Origin: a virus
Length of the DNA stretch: 64,000 bases
Strand: one strand, 5' to 3'
Virus record (IMG/VR): IMGVR_UViG_3300045988_098585
The translations under genes were made by a program, and so were the position numbers. This document shows, in pieces, positions 52,543-59,276 of this stretch. Under the pieces are notes generated by a model, which made no database searches, was not told where the DNA came from, and saw nothing but the letters and a program-made list of their open reading frames with translations. How positions within the stretch are numbered: the first letter of the stretch is position 1; every line of letters begins with the position of its first letter.

Positions 52543-52842
52543 TTATTTAAGAAAAGCACCTTTATTTTCTTCTTCCTCTGCTGCCATATCTCGGCACATT
52601 TTCAGTACATTAAAGTACTCTCCAAGATTATTATTATAGAGCAGCTTTGCTATCTGATGCACAAAAGATGACTTACGTCCATCTTGTTGCAAAGTCACTA
52701 TCTGGCTCGCTGGCATCATCAAGAACTGCTCCATAATTTCAACCTTTTCCTTAGAGGAAAGAAGTTTCTTGGTAGGAAGCAGAAATCCAACTTCCTCCAA
52801 GATTCGTGTTTTGACTGACTTAACCTTCATACTTGTCGCCAT
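52543..52842 (-). CDS. hypothetical protein
   Basis: 99-aa ORF overlapping the 3' end of the PRTase-FolE gene by 23 nt. Confidence 0.4.
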   Translation of the reverse strand: MATSMKVKSVKTRILEEVGFLLPTKKLLSSKEKVEIMEQFLMMPASQIVTLQQDGRKSSFVHQIAKLLYNNNLGEYFNVLKMCRDMAAEEEENKGAFLK

Positions 52843-53770
52843 TTACGAGGTTCATAAACTCAGCCCTCACTTGTGGGTCATCCTTAAAAGCACCTTCAAG
52901 GTAAGAAGAGGTCATAATACCCTTCTTCTTTGCGCCTCTAAACTCTTTGCAAGAATGGTGTCCCTTCATAACGAGAGCAATACCAAGTGGTGGATATTCG
53001 CTACCGAGAGCCTCTTTCAGCATATCTACGATGTCGTGTACCAATCGCTCCTGTATCTGTAAGCGAGCGGAGCAGTAATCAACCACACGGCCAATCTTAG
53101 AGATACCGAGTATCTTTCCTTTTGGGTTCGGAATATATGCGAACCAATACTTGCCCCAAAACCAAACACAATGATGTTCGCAGTTTGAATGGAAATCGCC
53201 TTGGTCGATAACCATGTTATCATAGACGATACCATCCTTGCCGTTATCAAAGGTCGTAATCTTTGGTTTCTGTGATGGGTCGTAACCTCTGAATATCTCT
53301 TTCCACATTCTGATAATGCGGTCGGGTGTACCCTTTAAGCCTTCACGATTAGGGTCTTCGCCAATGTACTCCAATATGCGGACGATATTATCCTCAACAG
53401 TTACCTCGTGCTCATCGGGGAAGATAAGCCAATCATTAGCTCCAACGATACCACCACAGAAAGATACCTTGTCCTTAGAGCGTTCCTTAACGAAGGTAAC
53501 CGCCGTATCGTAGTTGCTAAATACCTCAATAGTCTTGCCGCTATCGCAAATATCATCAACAATAAGGGTTTTAGGGGTAATCTTACGAATATCGCATTCG
53601 ATACGGATGCCAAGCAACTCAGAGAGCTGAATAGCTGTAAAATAGCCTCCTCTTGGAATAGGGTAGATTGCATCATAGCTTTTACCTTTATCCTTAACCT
53701 GTTCAGCCATTGCACTGATAGCAGTCTTATAGTAATTATAATCTATCTGAACTTTATTAGAATCTTTCAT
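52820..53770 (-). CDS. folE: fusion protein: Gpt-like type I phosphoribosyltransferase domain plus GTP cyclohydrolase I (FolE)
   Basis: N-terminus YPIPRGGYFTAIQLSELLGIRIE...TLIVDDICDSGKTIE...NDWLIFPDE (PRPP-binding loop). C-terminus EGLKGTPDRIIRMWKEIF...FHSNCEHHCVWFWGKYWFAYIP...GISKIGRVVDYCSARLQIQERL...MKGHHSCKEFRG (FolE zinc and active-site motifs). Confidence 0.8.
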   Translation of the reverse strand: MKDSNKVQIDYNYYKTAISAMAEQVKDKGKSYDAIYPIPRGGYFTAIQLSELLGIRIECDIRKITPKTLIVDDICDSGKTIEVFSNYDTAVTFVKERSKDKVSFCGGIVGANDWLIFPDEHEVTVEDNIVRILEYIGEDPNREGLKGTPDRIIRMWKEIFRGYDPSQKPKITTFDNGKDGIVYDNMVIDQGDFHSNCEHHCVWFWGKYWFAYIPNPKGKILGISKIGRVVDYCSARLQIQERLVHDIVDMLKEALGSEYPPLGIALVMKGHHSCKEFRGAKKKGIMTSSYLEGAFKDDPQVRAEFMNLVNGDKYEG

Positions 53771-53776
53771 ATTTCA

Positions 53777-54009
53777 TTATTTATTTTGGTTCTGCTGGCA
53801 TTTCTCCCAGTACTCTTTATAATCTTGTTTCTCCTCCTCATTTGGCTGACATACCTCATAAGAAGCACCGCATTGCATACAATGATAGAAGTCCACTACT
53901 GAATCATCATCCTCGCTGCGGTCACCTGATGAATCCCAACAAATCACCCCCCACAATAAAAGCAGATAGGACGATATTTTGTTGGGCTTTCTTTTTTCCT
54001 CTTATTCAT
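53777..54009 (-). CDS. zinc-ribbon protein requiring a -1 shift at a G6 run (or a homopolymer miscall)
   Basis: ATG 54009: MNKRKKESPTKYRPICFYCGG then TGA (53946..53944). The -1 frame continues VICWDSSGDRSEDDDSVVDFYHCMQCGASYEVCQPNEEEKQDYKEYWEKCQQNQNK to TAA at 53779..53777. The G6 run is at 53952..53947. Confidence 0.45.
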
Positions 54010-54021
54010 AGGTAAAATAAT

Positions 54022-54612
54022 TTACTTCACATTGAGAATCTTTTGCTGCTGTAAGGAAAGTCGCCATTTAGGGTTAGCCTCTACGAAAGCAACTGTCTGT
54101 TTCAGAATCTCAGCATTCTTCTTCGCATCGCCTGTATCACAAGGCTGAACGTAGTAGTAATCTGCATCAATACCACAATCGGTAATTTCATGCTCACCAT
54201 CAAAGACAACCTTCACCTCAGTAGCAACCTTAATGATAGGTTCTGCGCCCTTAACGAATAAGCACTTAGGAGAGCAAGTAACCCAGTTGATACCACCTGG
54301 AATCTTGTGCGTTCCGTTGGTTTCAATAGCAATATAGTATCCCCAATTATGGAGAAGGGTAGTAAGCTCCTCATCAACTTGCAATGTAGGCTCACCGCCC
54401 GTAAAGACAACGAATTTACAATCGGGTGAAAGTAACTGAATCTTATCCAGAATATCAATAGCTCCCATTTCCTCATACTTCTTAAAATCAGTATCACAGA
54501 AAGGGCACTTTAAATTACAACCCGAGAAGCGGACGAAGATAGCCGCTCTGCCAGCGTGTCTTCCCTCACCTTGAATAGAGTAGAAGATTTCGTTTACCTT
54601 GTACTTAGCCAT
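54022..54612 (-). CDS. queE: 7-carboxy-7-deazaguanine synthase QueE (radical SAM)
   Basis: YSIQGEGRHAGRAAIFVRFSGCNLKCPFCDT (Cx3Cx2C). Confidence 0.9.
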   Translation of the reverse strand: MAKYKVNEIFYSIQGEGRHAGRAAIFVRFSGCNLKCPFCDTDFKKYEEMGAIDILDKIQLLSPDCKFVVFTGGEPTLQVDEELTTLLHNWGYYIAIETNGTHKIPGGINWVTCSPKCLFVKGAEPIIKVATEVKVVFDGEHEITDCGIDADYYYVQPCDTGDAKKNAEILKQTVAFVEANPKWRLSLQQQKILNVK

Positions 54613-54971
54613 TAGAGAGCCTCCTTTCCGTCAATCATCTTATCAACACAATAAACGGCGATATTGCCTTCACTCTCCTGTACCTGTGCCTTGTAGCACT
54701 CTGGGAACTGCTCAGTAACCCACTTCGCAATATTCTCAGCGGTAGGATTGAAAGGCAAAAGCTCATTAAGATTTCCGTGGTCGAGATAACCATGAATCTT
54801 CTGTTTAAGATGCTTAAAATCCATCACCATACCATCCTCGTTCAGCTTTTCAGCCTTGCAGTAGACAGTAATAATCCAATTATGACCATGAAGATTGGCA
54901 CACTTGCTTTCATAAGAGAGATTCAGCTTATGACAAGCGGCAATCTCCATTCTTTTTGAAACGTAATACAT
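54612..54971 (-). CDS. queD: 6-carboxy-5,6,7,8-tetrahydropterin synthase QueD
   Basis: AACHKLNLSYESKCANLHGHNWIITVYC...DFKHLKQKIHGYLDHGNLNE (PTPS-family His/Cys motifs). Confidence 0.85.
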   Translation of the reverse strand: MYYVSKRMEIAACHKLNLSYESKCANLHGHNWIITVYCKAEKLNEDGMVMDFKHLKQKIHGYLDHGNLNELLPFNPTAENIAKWVTEQFPECYKAQVQESEGNIAVYCVDKMIDGKEAL

Positions 54972-54988
54972 AATTTCCTTTCTTTTAC

Positions 54989-57877: not shown

Positions 57878-57904
57878 AACTTTACCATTTAATAATTATT
57901 ATTG

Positions 57905-57912
57905 CAAAGTTA
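57905..57912 (-). promoter_or_regulatory. -7 box (TAACTTTG on minus strand) upstream of ParB-like/dpdA operon
   Basis: CAAAGTTA on plus, 28 nt upstream of ATG 57877. Confidence 0.4.
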
Positions 57913-58015
57913 CGGAGATTATTAATGTTTTAATAGCGAATAATAACTTCTGTATAAACAAATTAATTTTAACTAATAGCTTCTTATGATTATTTTTAGA
58001 CACTATGCTGTTTAT

Positions 58016-58054
58016 ACAAATAAGAAAAGCAGCTACCTATCACAGGCGGCTGCT
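58016..58054 (-). terminator. intrinsic terminator after the DUF4417-like gene
   Basis: Minus strand AGCAGC..GCTGCT followed by TTTTCTTATTTG. Confidence 0.6.
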
Positions 58055-58197
58055 TGTAGATAAAATAGTAAACTATTATTTTAGATAACCAAATCTTAAC
58101 TAATACAATTATTATTACAACACATTTAAAACCTGATGCAAAGGTACAAAAGAAAGCGAGATACAGCAAATAAATGCCATATCTCGCATAAACAACT

Positions 58198-58962
58198 CTA
58201 CTTACTCTGTATTTGTTTAGAGTTTTCAGAACGGAAATCCTCTAACTGATGTGTAAAAGGTGTTATCTTATCAAGTTGTTTCTTTACAGAAAACTCTTCA
58301 CCCAAGAATGCGATGCCTTCATGTATCTTTTGTAAGGCTGCGAGTTTTTTCTTTGTTGTAACAACGGGATTAATATAGATACAATTATTCTCTTGGGCGA
58401 ACCGCCGACATGTATCGCCACCTCCGTATATAACAAAAAGTGGTTCTTTCCCGTTCGCCCAATCCTTTGCGATAGAATACTCGAAGGCAAGATTATTCAG
58501 CCTATCTGAATATCCACGAGTAGCGAAAGCACGCCATCCACGAGGTACGCCTATCATATTGAGCTGGTAGAATTTCTGCGCAACGTTAAGGTCTACGAAT
58601 ACACCAATACCTTTGCCTTGCATACAACGGGCAATCCAACGTTTCTTGTAGATAGCCTGTAAGCCGAACGATACTGGCATCTCGTTATAGAGCGAAAAAT
58701 TCGGTTCAACGATAACGGCAGGATGATGTTGCAATATCTTTTCAGGGTGCTCGTAGATAGCTGAGAAGCGGTAATCATCGGTATAGAAGTGTAAAGAGCC
58801 AGCTCCGTAAAGATTAAAGGTTCTTCTCTGCTCGCCAAAACAAAGGAAAGGAGTTTGACACTCCTTGGCTTGCATATCAATGTCGAGGGTCGGGATTTCT
58901 AAGTCATTGTCCGTTGGGAAAAGTTGGTCGGGAAGAATCATTTCATAATCATTTCTTTTCAT
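58198..58962 (-). CDS. DUF4417-like protein
   Basis: LHFYTDDYRFSAIYEHPEKILQHHPAVIVEPNFSLYNEMP...YKKRWIARCMQGKGIGVFVDL resembles DUF4417 as I recall it. Confidence 0.5.
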   Translation of the reverse strand: MKRNDYEMILPDQLFPTDNDLEIPTLDIDMQAKECQTPFLCFGEQRRTFNLYGAGSLHFYTDDYRFSAIYEHPEKILQHHPAVIVEPNFSLYNEMPVSFGLQAIYKKRWIARCMQGKGIGVFVDLNVAQKFYQLNMIGVPRGWRAFATRGYSDRLNNLAFEYSIAKDWANGKEPLFVIYGGGDTCRRFAQENNCIYINPVVTTKKKLAALQKIHEGIAFLGEEFSVKKQLDKITPFTHQLEDFRSENSKQIQSK

Positions 58963-59276
58963 TTTCTTGCATTGTTTAATATGTTAATAATTTGATTATA
59001 TATAGTTATTGTATATTTATCTTTTGCTTGTATATATTGTAGATATTTCCTTGCCTGATTGATAATGTTTGCCCTTGTACGACAGAGTAAGCGAGCCGCA
59101 CGGTCTGGATGAATACAATAATCCCTGCTGATAAGGCAATACAGACCTCTTAATGTGTTTAGTTTTACACTTTTAGAGGTCGAGCATAATTGCATAAATG
59201 TTACATCACCTCCTTTGCATACCGCTTTCATAATTTGGTCTAATATCTCGTATTGTTGGATTTGATTATATACCAT
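58959..59276 (-). CDS. DnaA C-terminal-domain-like HTH protein
   Basis: KSVKLNTLRGLYCLISRDYCIHPDRAARLLCRTRANIINQARKYLQYIQ resembles the Bac_DnaA_C pattern. Confidence 0.4.
   Translation of the reverse strand: MVYNQIQQYEILDQIMKAVCKGGDVTFMQLCSTSKSVKLNTLRGLYCLISRDYCIHPDRAARLLCRTRANIINQARKYLQYIQAKDKYTITIYNQIINILNNARK

Follow-up and report, generated by a model that had tools for sequence, protein, structure and literature searches.

Gene content and organization of the modification island

The window analysed here is the whole of a 64,000-nucleotide stretch of viral DNA, IMG/VR record IMGVR_UViG_3300045988_098585. From 59.3 kb down to 48.8 kb its genes lie on the minus strand in a single co-directional block, the upstream part of which (52820-59276, minus strand) is the subject of this report: a modification island with genes for FolE, QueD, QueE and QueC, for a DpdA-type DNA-guanine transglycosylase, for a ParB-like protein and for a number of further proteins (Table 1). 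Directly downstream follows the packaging module (48827-52501, minus strand), which besides the genes listed also holds an open reading frame (ORF) of 66 aa. An earlier note on this DNA, made from the letters alone, had described a 7-deazaguanine DNA-modification island at this place, and our analysis supports that description. Taking all lines of evidence together, we read the locus as an operon for DNA hypermodification, carried by a siphovirus of temperate type that infects Bacteroidales, most likely Prevotella, and placing 2'-deoxy-preQ0 (dPreQ0) in the phage DNA, and we give this reading a probability of roughly 70%.

Table 1. Features of the modification island and of the adjoining packaging module, in the order of transcription
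Feature	Position	Strand	Evidence or remark
orf105	58959-59276	-	First gene of the orf105-DUF4417 unit; small protein; weak DnaA_C-like helix-turn-helix (HTH)
DUF4417 protein, 254 aa	58198-58962	-	Pfam PF14386, 9e-33
Spacer between the DUF4417 gene and parB, 320 bp	57878-58197		
Intrinsic-terminator-like hairpin	58156-58187	-	13 bp stem and T-run; ends the orf105-DUF4417 unit
Candidate short transcript	58020-58146	-	-7 motif, conserved hairpin and T-run
ParB-like protein, 223 aa	57206-57877	-	First gene of the modification operon; ParB/Srx, CTPase-fold
DpdA-type DNA-guanine transglycosylase, 286 aa	56338-57198	-	PHROG, DpdA1 homology, predicted fold
QueC, 218 aa	55653-56309	-	preQ0 synthase; Pfam PF06508, 1e-57
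ORF179, PD-(D/E)xK nuclease domain	55121-55660	-	179 aa; PDB profile and predicted fold
QueD, 6-carboxytetrahydropterin synthase	54612-54971	-	Pfam PTPS, 7e-28
QueE, 7-carboxy-7-deazaguanine synthase	54022-54612	-	Radical_SAM; phrog_2076
Zinc-ribbon ORF, broken	53777-54009	-	CxxC...CxxC; frameshift at G6 run
Phosphoribosyltransferase (PRTase)-FolE fusion, entire	52820-53770	-	
Gpt-like PRTase domain	53399-53770	-	N-terminal part of the FolE fusion
FolE, GTP cyclohydrolase I domain	52820-53398	-	Pfam, 6e-49
orf99, small ORF	52543-52842	-	Sits between folE and the TerS-like gene
TerS-like gene	52001-52501	-	DUF5681, 4e-5, 24.5 bits, under the cutoff of 27.5
TerL	50780-51970	-	Pfam Terminase_3/3C
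SPP1-type portal	48827-50338	-	Pfam SPP1_portal

The first unit of the island, orf105 and the DUF4417 gene, has a promoter candidate in the Bacteroidetes-type -7 motif TACTTTTG at 59322-59329 (minus strand), and the terminator-like hairpin at its end is kept in relatives, as seen in an intergenic alignment. The spacer that follows is a hot spot for insertions, its length in relatives ranging from 0.3 to 2.2 kb, and in the window it contains in succession the terminator, the motif TACCTTTG, about 110 nt, a conserved hairpin with T-run, and the promoter motif TAACTTTG (57905-57912, minus strand) ahead of parB. With a promoter of its own past the DUF4417 terminator, the modification operon would start here and read straight into terS, terL and the portal gene, and modification would thus be co-expressed with packaging. 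The earlier note had taken the position beside the terminase and portal genes as unusual; this view had to be given up, because the arrangement is the standard layout of this DpdA clade, found in gp1-gp7 of mycobacteriophage Rosebush and in dozens of other loci with TerL 1-4 kb downstream.

Enzymes of the preQ0 pathway

The presence of FolE, QueE, QueD, QueC and a DpdA-type transglycosylase on the minus strand, as the earlier note had it, was confirmed together with all the motifs quoted there, and Pfam, NCBIfam and PHROG between them identify a full preQ0 pathway (FolE, QueD, QueE and QueC). FolE matches Pfam GTP_cyclohydroI over residues 126-309 and NCBIfam NF006826 with 167 bits against a cutoff of 162. 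QueC, with SGGMDS at residues 9-14, clears the equivalog cutoff of TIGR00364 (176 bits, cutoff 150) and is the plain form of the enzyme, without an amidotransferase domain. In QueE the motif C32-x3-C36-x2-C39 is intact and the protein matches Pfam Radical_SAM (7e-12) and phrog_2076 (3e-36), while in QueD the CxxxHGH signature is readable; both are over the Pfam cutoffs but under the NCBIfam equivalog cutoffs, QueE with 163 bits against 240 (TIGR04508) and QueD with 88.5 bits against 89.25 (TIGR03367). At the nucleotide level megablast found no match of the island among GenBank phages.

Variants of these genes occur among the relatives. In two of them that are otherwise near-identical (L006, at 12268-12600, and L024), QueD is swapped for a version 30-32% identical, for which a DpdL-like T-fold enzyme is a possibility, and L006 moreover has about 570 nt of extra sequence ahead of queE. 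Another relative (L049, at 10690-11104) is a natural deletion variant in which everything from the start of queC through the end of folE is missing, so that the Que genes can evidently be lost; its dpdA matches as two adjacent pieces, which suggests that it carries a frameshift.

The DpdA-type transglycosylase

The earlier note had assigned the 286-aa protein to the DpdA family of transglycosylases, and the profile libraries divide over this assignment. Neither Pfam (E up to 5) nor NCBIfam gave a match, and no tRNA-guanine transglycosylase (TGT) or DpdA was found among PDB sequences with the single sequence or with a 12-sequence profile (A1). PHROG 887, named 'queuine tRNA-ribosyltransferase', is matched at 1.5e-53, and in phmmer comparisons with validated or classified DpdA1 proteins the window DpdA matches those of CAjan (5e-17), JenP1 (1e-14) and phiSM (5e-14). 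An AlphaFold model built from 44 homologues (pLDDT 80.5) retrieved from the PDB, as its top 21 fold matches, exclusively the tRNA-guanine transglycosylase of Zymomonas (Z. mobilis), with E-values of 1e-5 to 2e-4, a probability of 1.0 and a TM-score of about 0.5. The motifs DSGAF (residues 89-93) and DSTAW (residues 228-232) are invariant or nearly so in our alignments A1 and A4, D89 and D228 being fully invariant, and these two residues would be the equivalents of Asp102 and Asp280 of TGT. The latter enzyme bears a zinc site in its C-terminal region. Reading the window DpdA past residue 232 we saw no Cys/His cluster and thus no counterpart of the CxCxxC...H site of TGT, and the sequence of CAjan DpdA1 likewise shows no such C-terminal cluster. 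Deletion of dpdA abolishes dPreQ0 in CAjan DNA (PMC6884629). We therefore accept the DpdA call on the strength of PHROG 887, the similarity to DpdA1, the TGT fold, the invariant D89 and D228 and the CAjan deletion data taken together. As for the other DpdA subfamilies, a six-frame phmmer search with the DpdA4 candidate of HVTV-2 gave no match to the window DpdA, and DpdA2 (nt-1) and DpdA3 (immuto, CP20), sought with a small DpdA HMM beside the queC genes of these phages, were not found there.

The N-terminus of the window DpdA contains an internal repeat, MEVYLAGG at residues 1-8 and MEVFLAGE at residues 40-47. Many homologues begin at the second copy and model confidence is low for residues 21-53; the true start may be M40. 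A second dpdA paralogue lies downstream of the first in several relatives: it adjoins the first directly in L037 (10834-11448), L042 (10825-11442), L062 and L063, and a single gene separates the two in L071 and L080. The second DpdA of L037 and of L042 is about 49% identical to that of the window, and such pairs might represent two sequence specificities.

A ParB-like gene beside dpdA

Relatives of the island were gathered from IMG/VR (53 close ones) and from bacterial and archaeal genome assemblies (80 diverse ones), and the gene pattern was counted over 81 loci. These span Bacteroidota, Firmicutes, Actinobacteria and others; the hosts named in the records include Prevotella, Alistipes, Phocaeicola, Muribaculaceae, Lachnospiraceae, Oscillospiraceae, Veillonella, Collinsella, Staphylococcus and Enterococcus, and one contig is binned with an Archaeoglobus metagenome-assembled genome (MAG). 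The earlier note had counted the ParB-like gene among the non-canonical extras. Its identity stands, but it is no extra: it is the most conserved neighbour of dpdA. A single-sequence phmmer search placed a ParB-like gene immediately upstream of dpdA in 35 loci, and an iterated search raised this to 64 of 79 loci, those with dpdA at a contig edge being left out of the count; several of the nine apparent exceptions have spurious antisense ORFs that stem from crude gene calling. Conversely, within loci of about 20 kb, 64 of 78 ParB-like matches occupy precisely this position. Pfam ParB_N is matched by eight out of ten sampled ORFs upstream of dpdA, and in most sampled loci the two genes overlap by 4 nt at the ParB stop and dpdA start. 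Downstream of dpdA comes either the Que/FolE set or a precursor transporter of the Vut_1/YhhQ type (in 8/8 sampled 'singleton' loci), and the large terminase, which belongs to three different Pfam families, follows 1-4 kb downstream. Based on this pattern over 81 loci, we consider the ParB-like protein and DpdA to be the invariant core of the system, with a modular precursor supply, in a module that heads the packaging operon.

A further arrangement was seen in three Alistipes and Rikenellaceae contigs (L069, L070 and L073; at ~11300-13716), where ParB and DpdA are accompanied by a 308-aa Vut_1 transporter with an N-terminal extension and by a 451-aa FolE. An N-terminal extension of about 265 aa makes the latter another non-standard FolE fusion, and QueC, QueD and QueE were not detected at these loci.

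The ParB-like protein of the window matches PHROG 17622 (4e-38), the N-terminal part of PHROG 940 (2e-14) and PHROG 620, 'ParB-like partition protein' (3e-10), and gives a sub-threshold 12.7 bits with Pfam ParB_N. Of the ParB-CTPase fold it has Box I (N46-P-R48) and Box II (G89-x-x-R92), and both are conserved in 80 dpdA-adjacent homologues. The DGQQR/DGQHR motif is absent (the sequence reads C-G-N-M-R), and NCBIfam gave no match. In other lineages some of the ParB-like partners have a CxxC zinc ribbon at their end, and a link between it and the zinc-ribbon ORF of the island is conceivable. From the conserved neighbourhood we infer that the ParB-like protein is a partner of this DpdA clade. 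Bacterial DpdA is inactive without DpdB, a ParB-fold ATPase (PMC10164549), and the DpdA1 of phiSM is inactive when expressed alone in E. coli (PMC10516641); in phiSM a ParB-like gene, CEPG_00052, lies between dpdA and queC. By analogy the ParB-like protein would act on DNA as an NTP-dependent clamp or loader and recruit DpdA to it, as DpdB does with bacterial DpdA. We say that it would work like DpdB, and not that it is DpdB, because it is much smaller, has no DGQ(H/Q)R motif and has no match in NCBIfam. The two main papers on phage 7-deazaguanine DNA modification never mention ParB. The idea of a ParB partner is nonetheless not wholly new, since the paper on mycobacteriophage CRB2 already suggested that its ORF1 might be a dpdB homologue (PMC6392294).

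Our most far-reaching proposal, which we offer tentatively, is that DpdA enzymes of this clade are obligate two-component enzymes whose ParB-fold NTPase loads DpdA on DNA or moves it along, that the PRTase-FolE fusion recycles guanine in some of the phages, and that a CdiA-CT-type nuclease attacks unmodified host nucleic acid. An obligate ParB-DpdA pair, if true, would be the phage counterpart of the bacterial DpdB system and would explain the inactivity of lone phage DpdAs such as that of phiSM; the pairing bears on why some phage DpdAs fail in heterologous hosts and, more generally, on the role of ParB-fold proteins beside DNA-modifying enzymes. Weighing against the partnership are the missing DGQ(H/Q)R motif and the lack of a DpdB-type NCBIfam match, and the CAjan DpdA, which works without a ParB neighbour; furthermore the true partner could be DUF4417, because the ParB-like protein matches the ParB half of ParB-DUF4417 fusions and a DUF4417 gene is nearby.

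The main rival view, less likely but of appreciable probability, is that the ParB-like protein is no partner of DpdA: it would be the ParB half of a ParB-DUF4417 module that has split in two, or else an accessory of packaging or partition. Its gene would then merely occupy the pre-terminase slot that is common for phage ParB-domain genes, and DpdA would act alone like CAjan DpdA1. The ParB-like and DUF4417 proteins indeed match the two halves of phrog_940, DUF4417 the C-terminal one, and in phages DUF4417 is usually fused to ParB-CTPase domains (bioRxiv 10.1101/2025.10.10.680097); ParB-domain proteins without a known role accompany many other phage DNA-modifying enzymes (PMC12783734); CAjan DNA is modified with no ParB gene next to dpdA (PMC6884629); and the packaging module of the window has a second ParB-like gene (48387-48824, minus strand), between the portal gene and that of a 937-aa head protein, with a Pfam ParBc_2 score of 24.5 bits just over the cutoff. 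Nevertheless, DUF4417 is present in 8 of the 81 diverse dpdA loci, whereas ParB is directly upstream in 64/79, usually with overlapping stop and start codons. The pairing holds both with Que genes and with the transporter, and with three terminase families, and the ParB-like gene of phiSM is situated within the cluster with no terminase near it. In the window itself the terminator hairpin and the Bacteroidetes-type promoter motifs part the DUF4417 gene from parB, and it is their spacer that is the insertion hot spot. The earlier note had also placed the DUF4417-like gene in the island: the domain is there, as the Pfam match attests, but the gene belongs with orf105 to a separate upstream unit that has its own terminator, and it is found in few dpdA loci. 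A cryptic transglycosylase was considered for DUF4417 and rejected (probability 0.2% in hhalign against the DpdA alignment), and the DUF4417 profile had no match in the PDB.

The phosphoribosyltransferase-FolE fusion

The PRTase that the earlier note had seen fused to FolE is real, according to phrog_8995 (8e-10), PDB profiles and its occurrence in seven contigs, and it is to our mind the most interesting accessory gene of the island. The domain comprises residues 1-124 (about 124 aa), and its PRGG loop, the PRPP-binding motif VVDDICDSGKT and the C-terminal W114..P..E are all invariant. The window domain scores 22.9 bits with Pfam, under the cutoff of 26.3, while close homologues carry PF00156. 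Its profile (A3) finds in the PDB a purine PRTase, 1vdm, at 9e-16 and the XGPRT of E. coli at 1e-8. With E. coli Gpt and the archaeal purine PRTases (1a95, 1vdm, 4z1o; profile matches 1e-8 to 9e-16) it shares PRGG, the acidic PRPP motif and a C-terminal W-x-x-x-P-W/D-E, and it differs from them in its length of about 124 aa and its fusion to GTP cyclohydrolase I.

The fusion is found in seven independent contigs, the window included, and in database proteins with both Pfam domains. In 47 of the 53 close relatives FolE stands alone, starting at about residue 124. An unrelated, Verrucomicrobia-binned contig (L094) encodes a 303-aa PRTase-FolE fusion, 32-39% identical and over the cutoff of Pfam Pribosyltran with 30.4 bits, and the fusion has arisen independently there. 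In a Lachnospiraceae-binned contig (L107) a stand-alone PRTase gene lies between queD and queE. Since the word-indexed search for PRTase homologues gave 12 proteins, this distribution is a lower bound. The recurrence in three lineages speaks for a functional link between the PRTase and the preQ0 cluster. Speculatively, the Gpt-like PRTase probably recycles guanine for FolE: it would turn the guanine released by DpdA into GMP and so back into the GTP pool that feeds FolE. Such salvage would close a loop, because one GTP is spent on every preQ0 and one guanine is released whenever DpdA inserts it, and the fusion points to a kind of salvage that had not been considered before for deazaguanine DNA modification. 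It counts against this reading that 47/53 close relatives do without the PRTase domain.

ToyH phosphoribosylates a preQ0-type base in the biosynthesis of toyocamycin. Comparably, though we think it unlikely, the PRTase might act not on guanine but on preQ0 (or on 7-carboxy-7-deazaguanine), making a 7-deazaguanine ribonucleotide that could feed incorporation at the nucleotide level or could be an inhibitor or signal. The domain is a purine PRTase with its base-stacking Trp conserved and recurs specifically within preQ0 clusters, which would suit such a substrate. Guanine salvage is better matched by the FolE fusion partner, which uses GTP; moreover, Pfam found no kinase, ribonucleotide reductase or DNA polymerase in the early genes of the window, and the presence of DpdA fits insertion after replication (PMC10516641).

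Relation to known deazaguanine DNA-modification systems

By gene content and order the system is a member of the Rosebush-type family in an abundant, uncultured gut phage, with three accessory genes added. In Rosebush (Mycobacterium phage, cluster B2) gp1-gp7 encode a ParB-like protein, DpdA, QueC, QueD, QueE, FolE and TerL, with the portal gene a few genes on, and as in the window QueC is plain and there is no QueF or amidotransferase. The QueC proteins are 43% identical, and over parts of their lengths QueE shares 38%, FolE 31% and QueD 26%. Rosebush gp1 matches the profile of ParB-like dpdA neighbours at 4e-13, and its DpdA is tied to that of the window via intermediates (CAjan, phiFN37), a direct pairwise match being absent. 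The host of Rosebush belongs to the Actinobacteria and that of the window phage to the Bacteroidota; the window further adds the PRTase on FolE, the nuclease ORF between queC and queD, the zinc-ribbon ORF, orf99 and the TerS-like gene.

The DpdA1 of CAjan and of the other 9g-type phages (Queuovirinae) has the same DSGAF and DS(S/T)xW motifs, and that of CAjan is 28% identical to the window DpdA at the E-value given above (5e-17). However, the CAjan cluster lies among replication genes beside the polymerase and not the terminase, has no ParB-like neighbour and includes a preQ0 transporter gene, while 9g and JenP1 have a QueC fused to an amidotransferase domain (Gat-QueC) and make dG+. The Cellulophaga phage phiSM, whose host is also a member of the Bacteroidota, has DpdA1 followed by a ParB-like protein, QueC, QueD and QueE, and its DpdA is homologous (5e-14). 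In contrast to the window it carries QueF and DpdM, and its DNA contains dPreQ1 and mdPreQ1 (PMC10516641); its ParB-like gene is downstream of dpdA, and the cluster is not beside a terminase. Finally, the Dpd system of Salmonella Montevideo combines a TGT-like transglycosylase with a ParB-fold NTPase, without which preQ0 is not inserted (PMC10164549), and Box II is conserved in the window ParB. DpdB forms a dimer of 80-95 kDa (PMC10164549), and the window protein is about half as large as the subunit that this implies; it also lacks both DGQQR/DGQHR and the SspE-like C-terminal domain. Unlike bacterial Dpd clusters the window has neither DpdC nor the restriction genes DpdD-K, and its context is a phage, not a defence island.

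The predicted modified base

By the established queuosine pathway, FolE, QueD, QueE and QueC would turn GTP into the free base preQ0. After replication DpdA would swap a subset of the guanines in DNA for preQ0, freeing guanine and leaving 2'-deoxy-preQ0, a step that we propose from homology to the validated DpdA of CAjan and from a gene set and order identical to those of Rosebush. The earlier note had predicted dPreQ0 as well, from the lack of QueF, of an amidotransferase-QueC fusion and of an ArcS-like gene. These absences are upheld for the window, ArcS being judged by the absence of a second TGT-like gene. A Pfam scan of the plus-strand genes at 25.6-45.6 kb and 59.5-63.4 kb and of a selection of the structural genes gave no match to QueF, to a GATase, to a second TGT-like domain, to DUF3109 (DpdM) or to a formyltransferase. 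When the whole window was searched in six frames with phmmer, the queries QueF (phiSM, HVTV-2), DpdM of phiSM, the Gat domain of JenP1, annotated YhhQ-type transporters (phiFN37, CAjan) and the DpdA4 candidate matched only queC and dpdA, and the JenP1 Gat domain had no match. The content of the window fits the phage preQ0 group (group 2 of Hutinet et al. 2019): DpdA and a full preQ0 pathway, with no amidotransferase or QueF. Because QueC is plain, because QueF, Gat and ArcS are missing, and because the dPreQ0 phages Rosebush and CAjan have the same minimal set, dPreQ0 is the best prediction for the phage DNA. In Rosebush dPreQ0 amounts to about 28% of G and in CAjan to about 32% (PMC6884629). 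Such modified DNA resists restriction enzymes with G-containing sites in other phages and would be expected to do so here. If dPreQ0 is present, it bears on evasion of restriction and CRISPR in Prevotella and Bacteroidales communities and on sequencing or cloning bias for these phages.

This assignment has its weak spots. Pfam, NCBIfam and PDB profiles miss TGT, so the DpdA call depends on PHROG, pairwise homology and a fold match with a TM-score of about 0.5. Some 10-20 kb of the genome lies outside the window, so that the absences apply to the window; the relatives are mosaic in the genes at the window ends, and one of them (L141) shares only ~560 nt with the window. The identity and the level of the modified base are predictions, and dADG is conceivable because QueC is equally close to the QueC of Campylobacter phages (48% identity, against 43% to Rosebush), a group reported to carry dADG.

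That the pathway holds but the base in DNA is dADG or another derivative therefore deserves mention, albeit with a rather low probability. QueC could stop at the amide or preQ0-DNA could be hydrated, giving dADG, and other derivatives could be made by the zinc-ribbon protein, orf99 or ORF179. Phages of the Campylobacter group carry dADG (PMC10516641), with a QueC 48% identical to ours, Rosebush has trace dADG alongside dPreQ0 (PMC6884629), several ORFs of the island have no assigned function, and eight 7-deazaguanine derivatives are known, some of them from unexpected enzymes (PMC10516641). Against this, the score of QueC exceeds the equivalog cutoff that NCBIfam sets for preQ0 synthase, the genes and their order match those of the dPreQ0 phage Rosebush, and there is no homologue of QueF, DpdM or Gat in the window and no formyltransferase domain in the Pfam-scanned genes; the unassigned ORFs are small and often broken or missing in relatives, and ORF179 has a nuclease fold and not that of a base-modifying enzyme.

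We regard it as very improbable that the island is an auxiliary metabolic module for host tRNA, boosting a queuosine precursor for a transglycosylase that acts on tRNA and not on DNA: PHROG and many GenBank records do name the homologues 'queuine tRNA-ribosyltransferase' and the top fold matches are tRNA-guanine transglycosylases, but the window DpdA is of the short DpdA1-like form, kin to enzymes with proven activity on DNA, is paired with a ParB protein of the DNA-binding type, and unlike TGT has no Cys/His cluster in its C-terminal part. Furthermore, the mycobacterial hosts of Rosebush-type phages are without the queuosine pathway and the phage DNA is modified nonetheless (PMC6884629).

Accessory genes and RNA candidates

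The PRTase fusion, ORF179 and the zinc ribbon are genuine accessory genes, each found in part of the lineage only, and the last two are dispensable add-ons. For ORF179, the PD-(D/E)xK ORF that the earlier note had placed between queC and queD, a PDB profile, the fold and conserved columns all agree. Its true start is the ATG at 55660, giving 179 aa, because homologues begin with MxKxSGGTRNY. The profile matches PDB entry 4g6v_A, the CdiA-CT toxin of B. pseudomallei 1026b, at 4e-5, and an AlphaFold model (pLDDT 87) has this same entry as its sole significant fold match (E 4.7e-5, TM-score 0.62 on the target); the catalytic E, D and (D/E)xK columns are conserved. The family counts 87 cluster representatives. 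Its distant homologues are the C-termini of MuF head proteins matching Pfam CdiA_C, which ORF179 itself does not match. It thus has in common with CdiA-CT of B. pseudomallei 1026b and MuF toxins the PD-(D/E)xK fold, with homologous domains at MuF C-termini, but differs in being free-standing (179 aa) with the N-terminal MxKxSGGTRNY, in having no recognisable immunity gene and in its location inside a DNA-modification operon. No immunity gene follows it, as the 149-bp gap to queD has hairpins and no plausible ORF. ORF179 is found in 6 of the 81 diverse loci; relatives carry at the same site alleles only about 25% identical, and it lies upstream of parB in L043 and directly after dpdA in L075. 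It is, then, a polymorphic accessory nuclease cassette, and one may speculate that it attacks the unmodified nucleic acid of the host and leaves the modified phage DNA intact. A role as base-modifying enzyme was rejected in view of the nuclease-toxin fold.

The frameshift seen by the earlier note in the zinc-ribbon ORF is likewise borne out. The ATG at 54009 opens MNKRKKESPTKYRPICFYCGG, with a stop just past a run of six G (G6; 53947-53952), and one extra G would join it to the 59-aa ORF that follows. Most relatives have an intact CxxC...CxxC protein of 70-77 aa. The G6 run recurs in L041, the closest IMG/VR relative; in several others the ORF is interrupted at different places, and in five the gene is missing, which makes the zinc ribbon dispensable; the Pfam scan found no family match for it. 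The same scan found none for orf99, which is 88-100% identical in most close relatives. For orf105 (54-99% identity in close relatives) the earlier note had suggested a DnaA_C-like HTH, but the match to Pfam PF08299 (Bac_DnaA_C), 16 bits and E 0.012 against a cutoff of 31.5, is too weak to name the gene.

The plus-strand small RNA that the earlier note proposed found no support. Rfam gave no match on either strand of 50000-64000 at E<=1, neither a preQ1 riboswitch nor any other known RNA; plus-strand sigma-70-like promoters are at chance (26 found, 22.4 expected by shuffle), and the terminator-like stems of that strand within the island have a length of just 5-6 bp. On the minus strand the spacer between the DUF4417 gene and parB may hold a short transcript of about 110 nt, a weak candidate, which would start with the -7 motif TACCTTTG at 58139-58146 and end with the second conserved hairpin and T-run at 58020-58055.

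Host, abundance and the rest of the window

TerL shares about 40% identity with its counterparts in phages of Bacteroides and Phocaeicola. In a Prevotella MAG, a contig of 124 kb (L061) encodes a DpdA 97% identical to that of the window, and the genome of the isolate Prevotella sp. tc2-28 (L110) has a related cluster in the order ParB-DpdA-QueC-ORF179-QueD-QueE-FolE-TerS-TerL. In L041, upstream of the island at 86-2169, two ORFs look, on inspection of their sequences, like those of a tyrosine integrase and an S24-type repressor. Past 60615 the window and L041 diverge, and the early region is highly mosaic among relatives. The lineage is very common in human-gut metagenomes: the DpdA cluster at 90% identity has 2283 member sequences, and a protein from the start of the window is matched by 327 IMG/VR stretches, well over the 53 loci found via DpdA.

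Outside the island, an IS21-family element (37803-40105, plus strand) is inserted in the phage genome, with a GC content of about 50% against about 37% in its flanks; it encodes an IstA-like transposase of 518 aa with rve and Mu-transposase C-terminal domains and an IstB ATPase of 243 aa (1e-57). A second, independent DNA-modification function is found at 30874-32030 (plus strand), where an N6/N4 DNA methyltransferase (2.5e-25) is directly followed by a VRR-NUC nuclease. The 937-aa protein beside the portal (45574-48387, minus strand) ends in an ADP-ribosyltransferase exoenzyme domain (residues 734-909, 4.5e-18), and the divergent gene near it, at 44429-45217 (plus strand), has an ADP-ribosylglycohydrolase (1.6e-31) as its product; together they might form a toxin-antidote pair.

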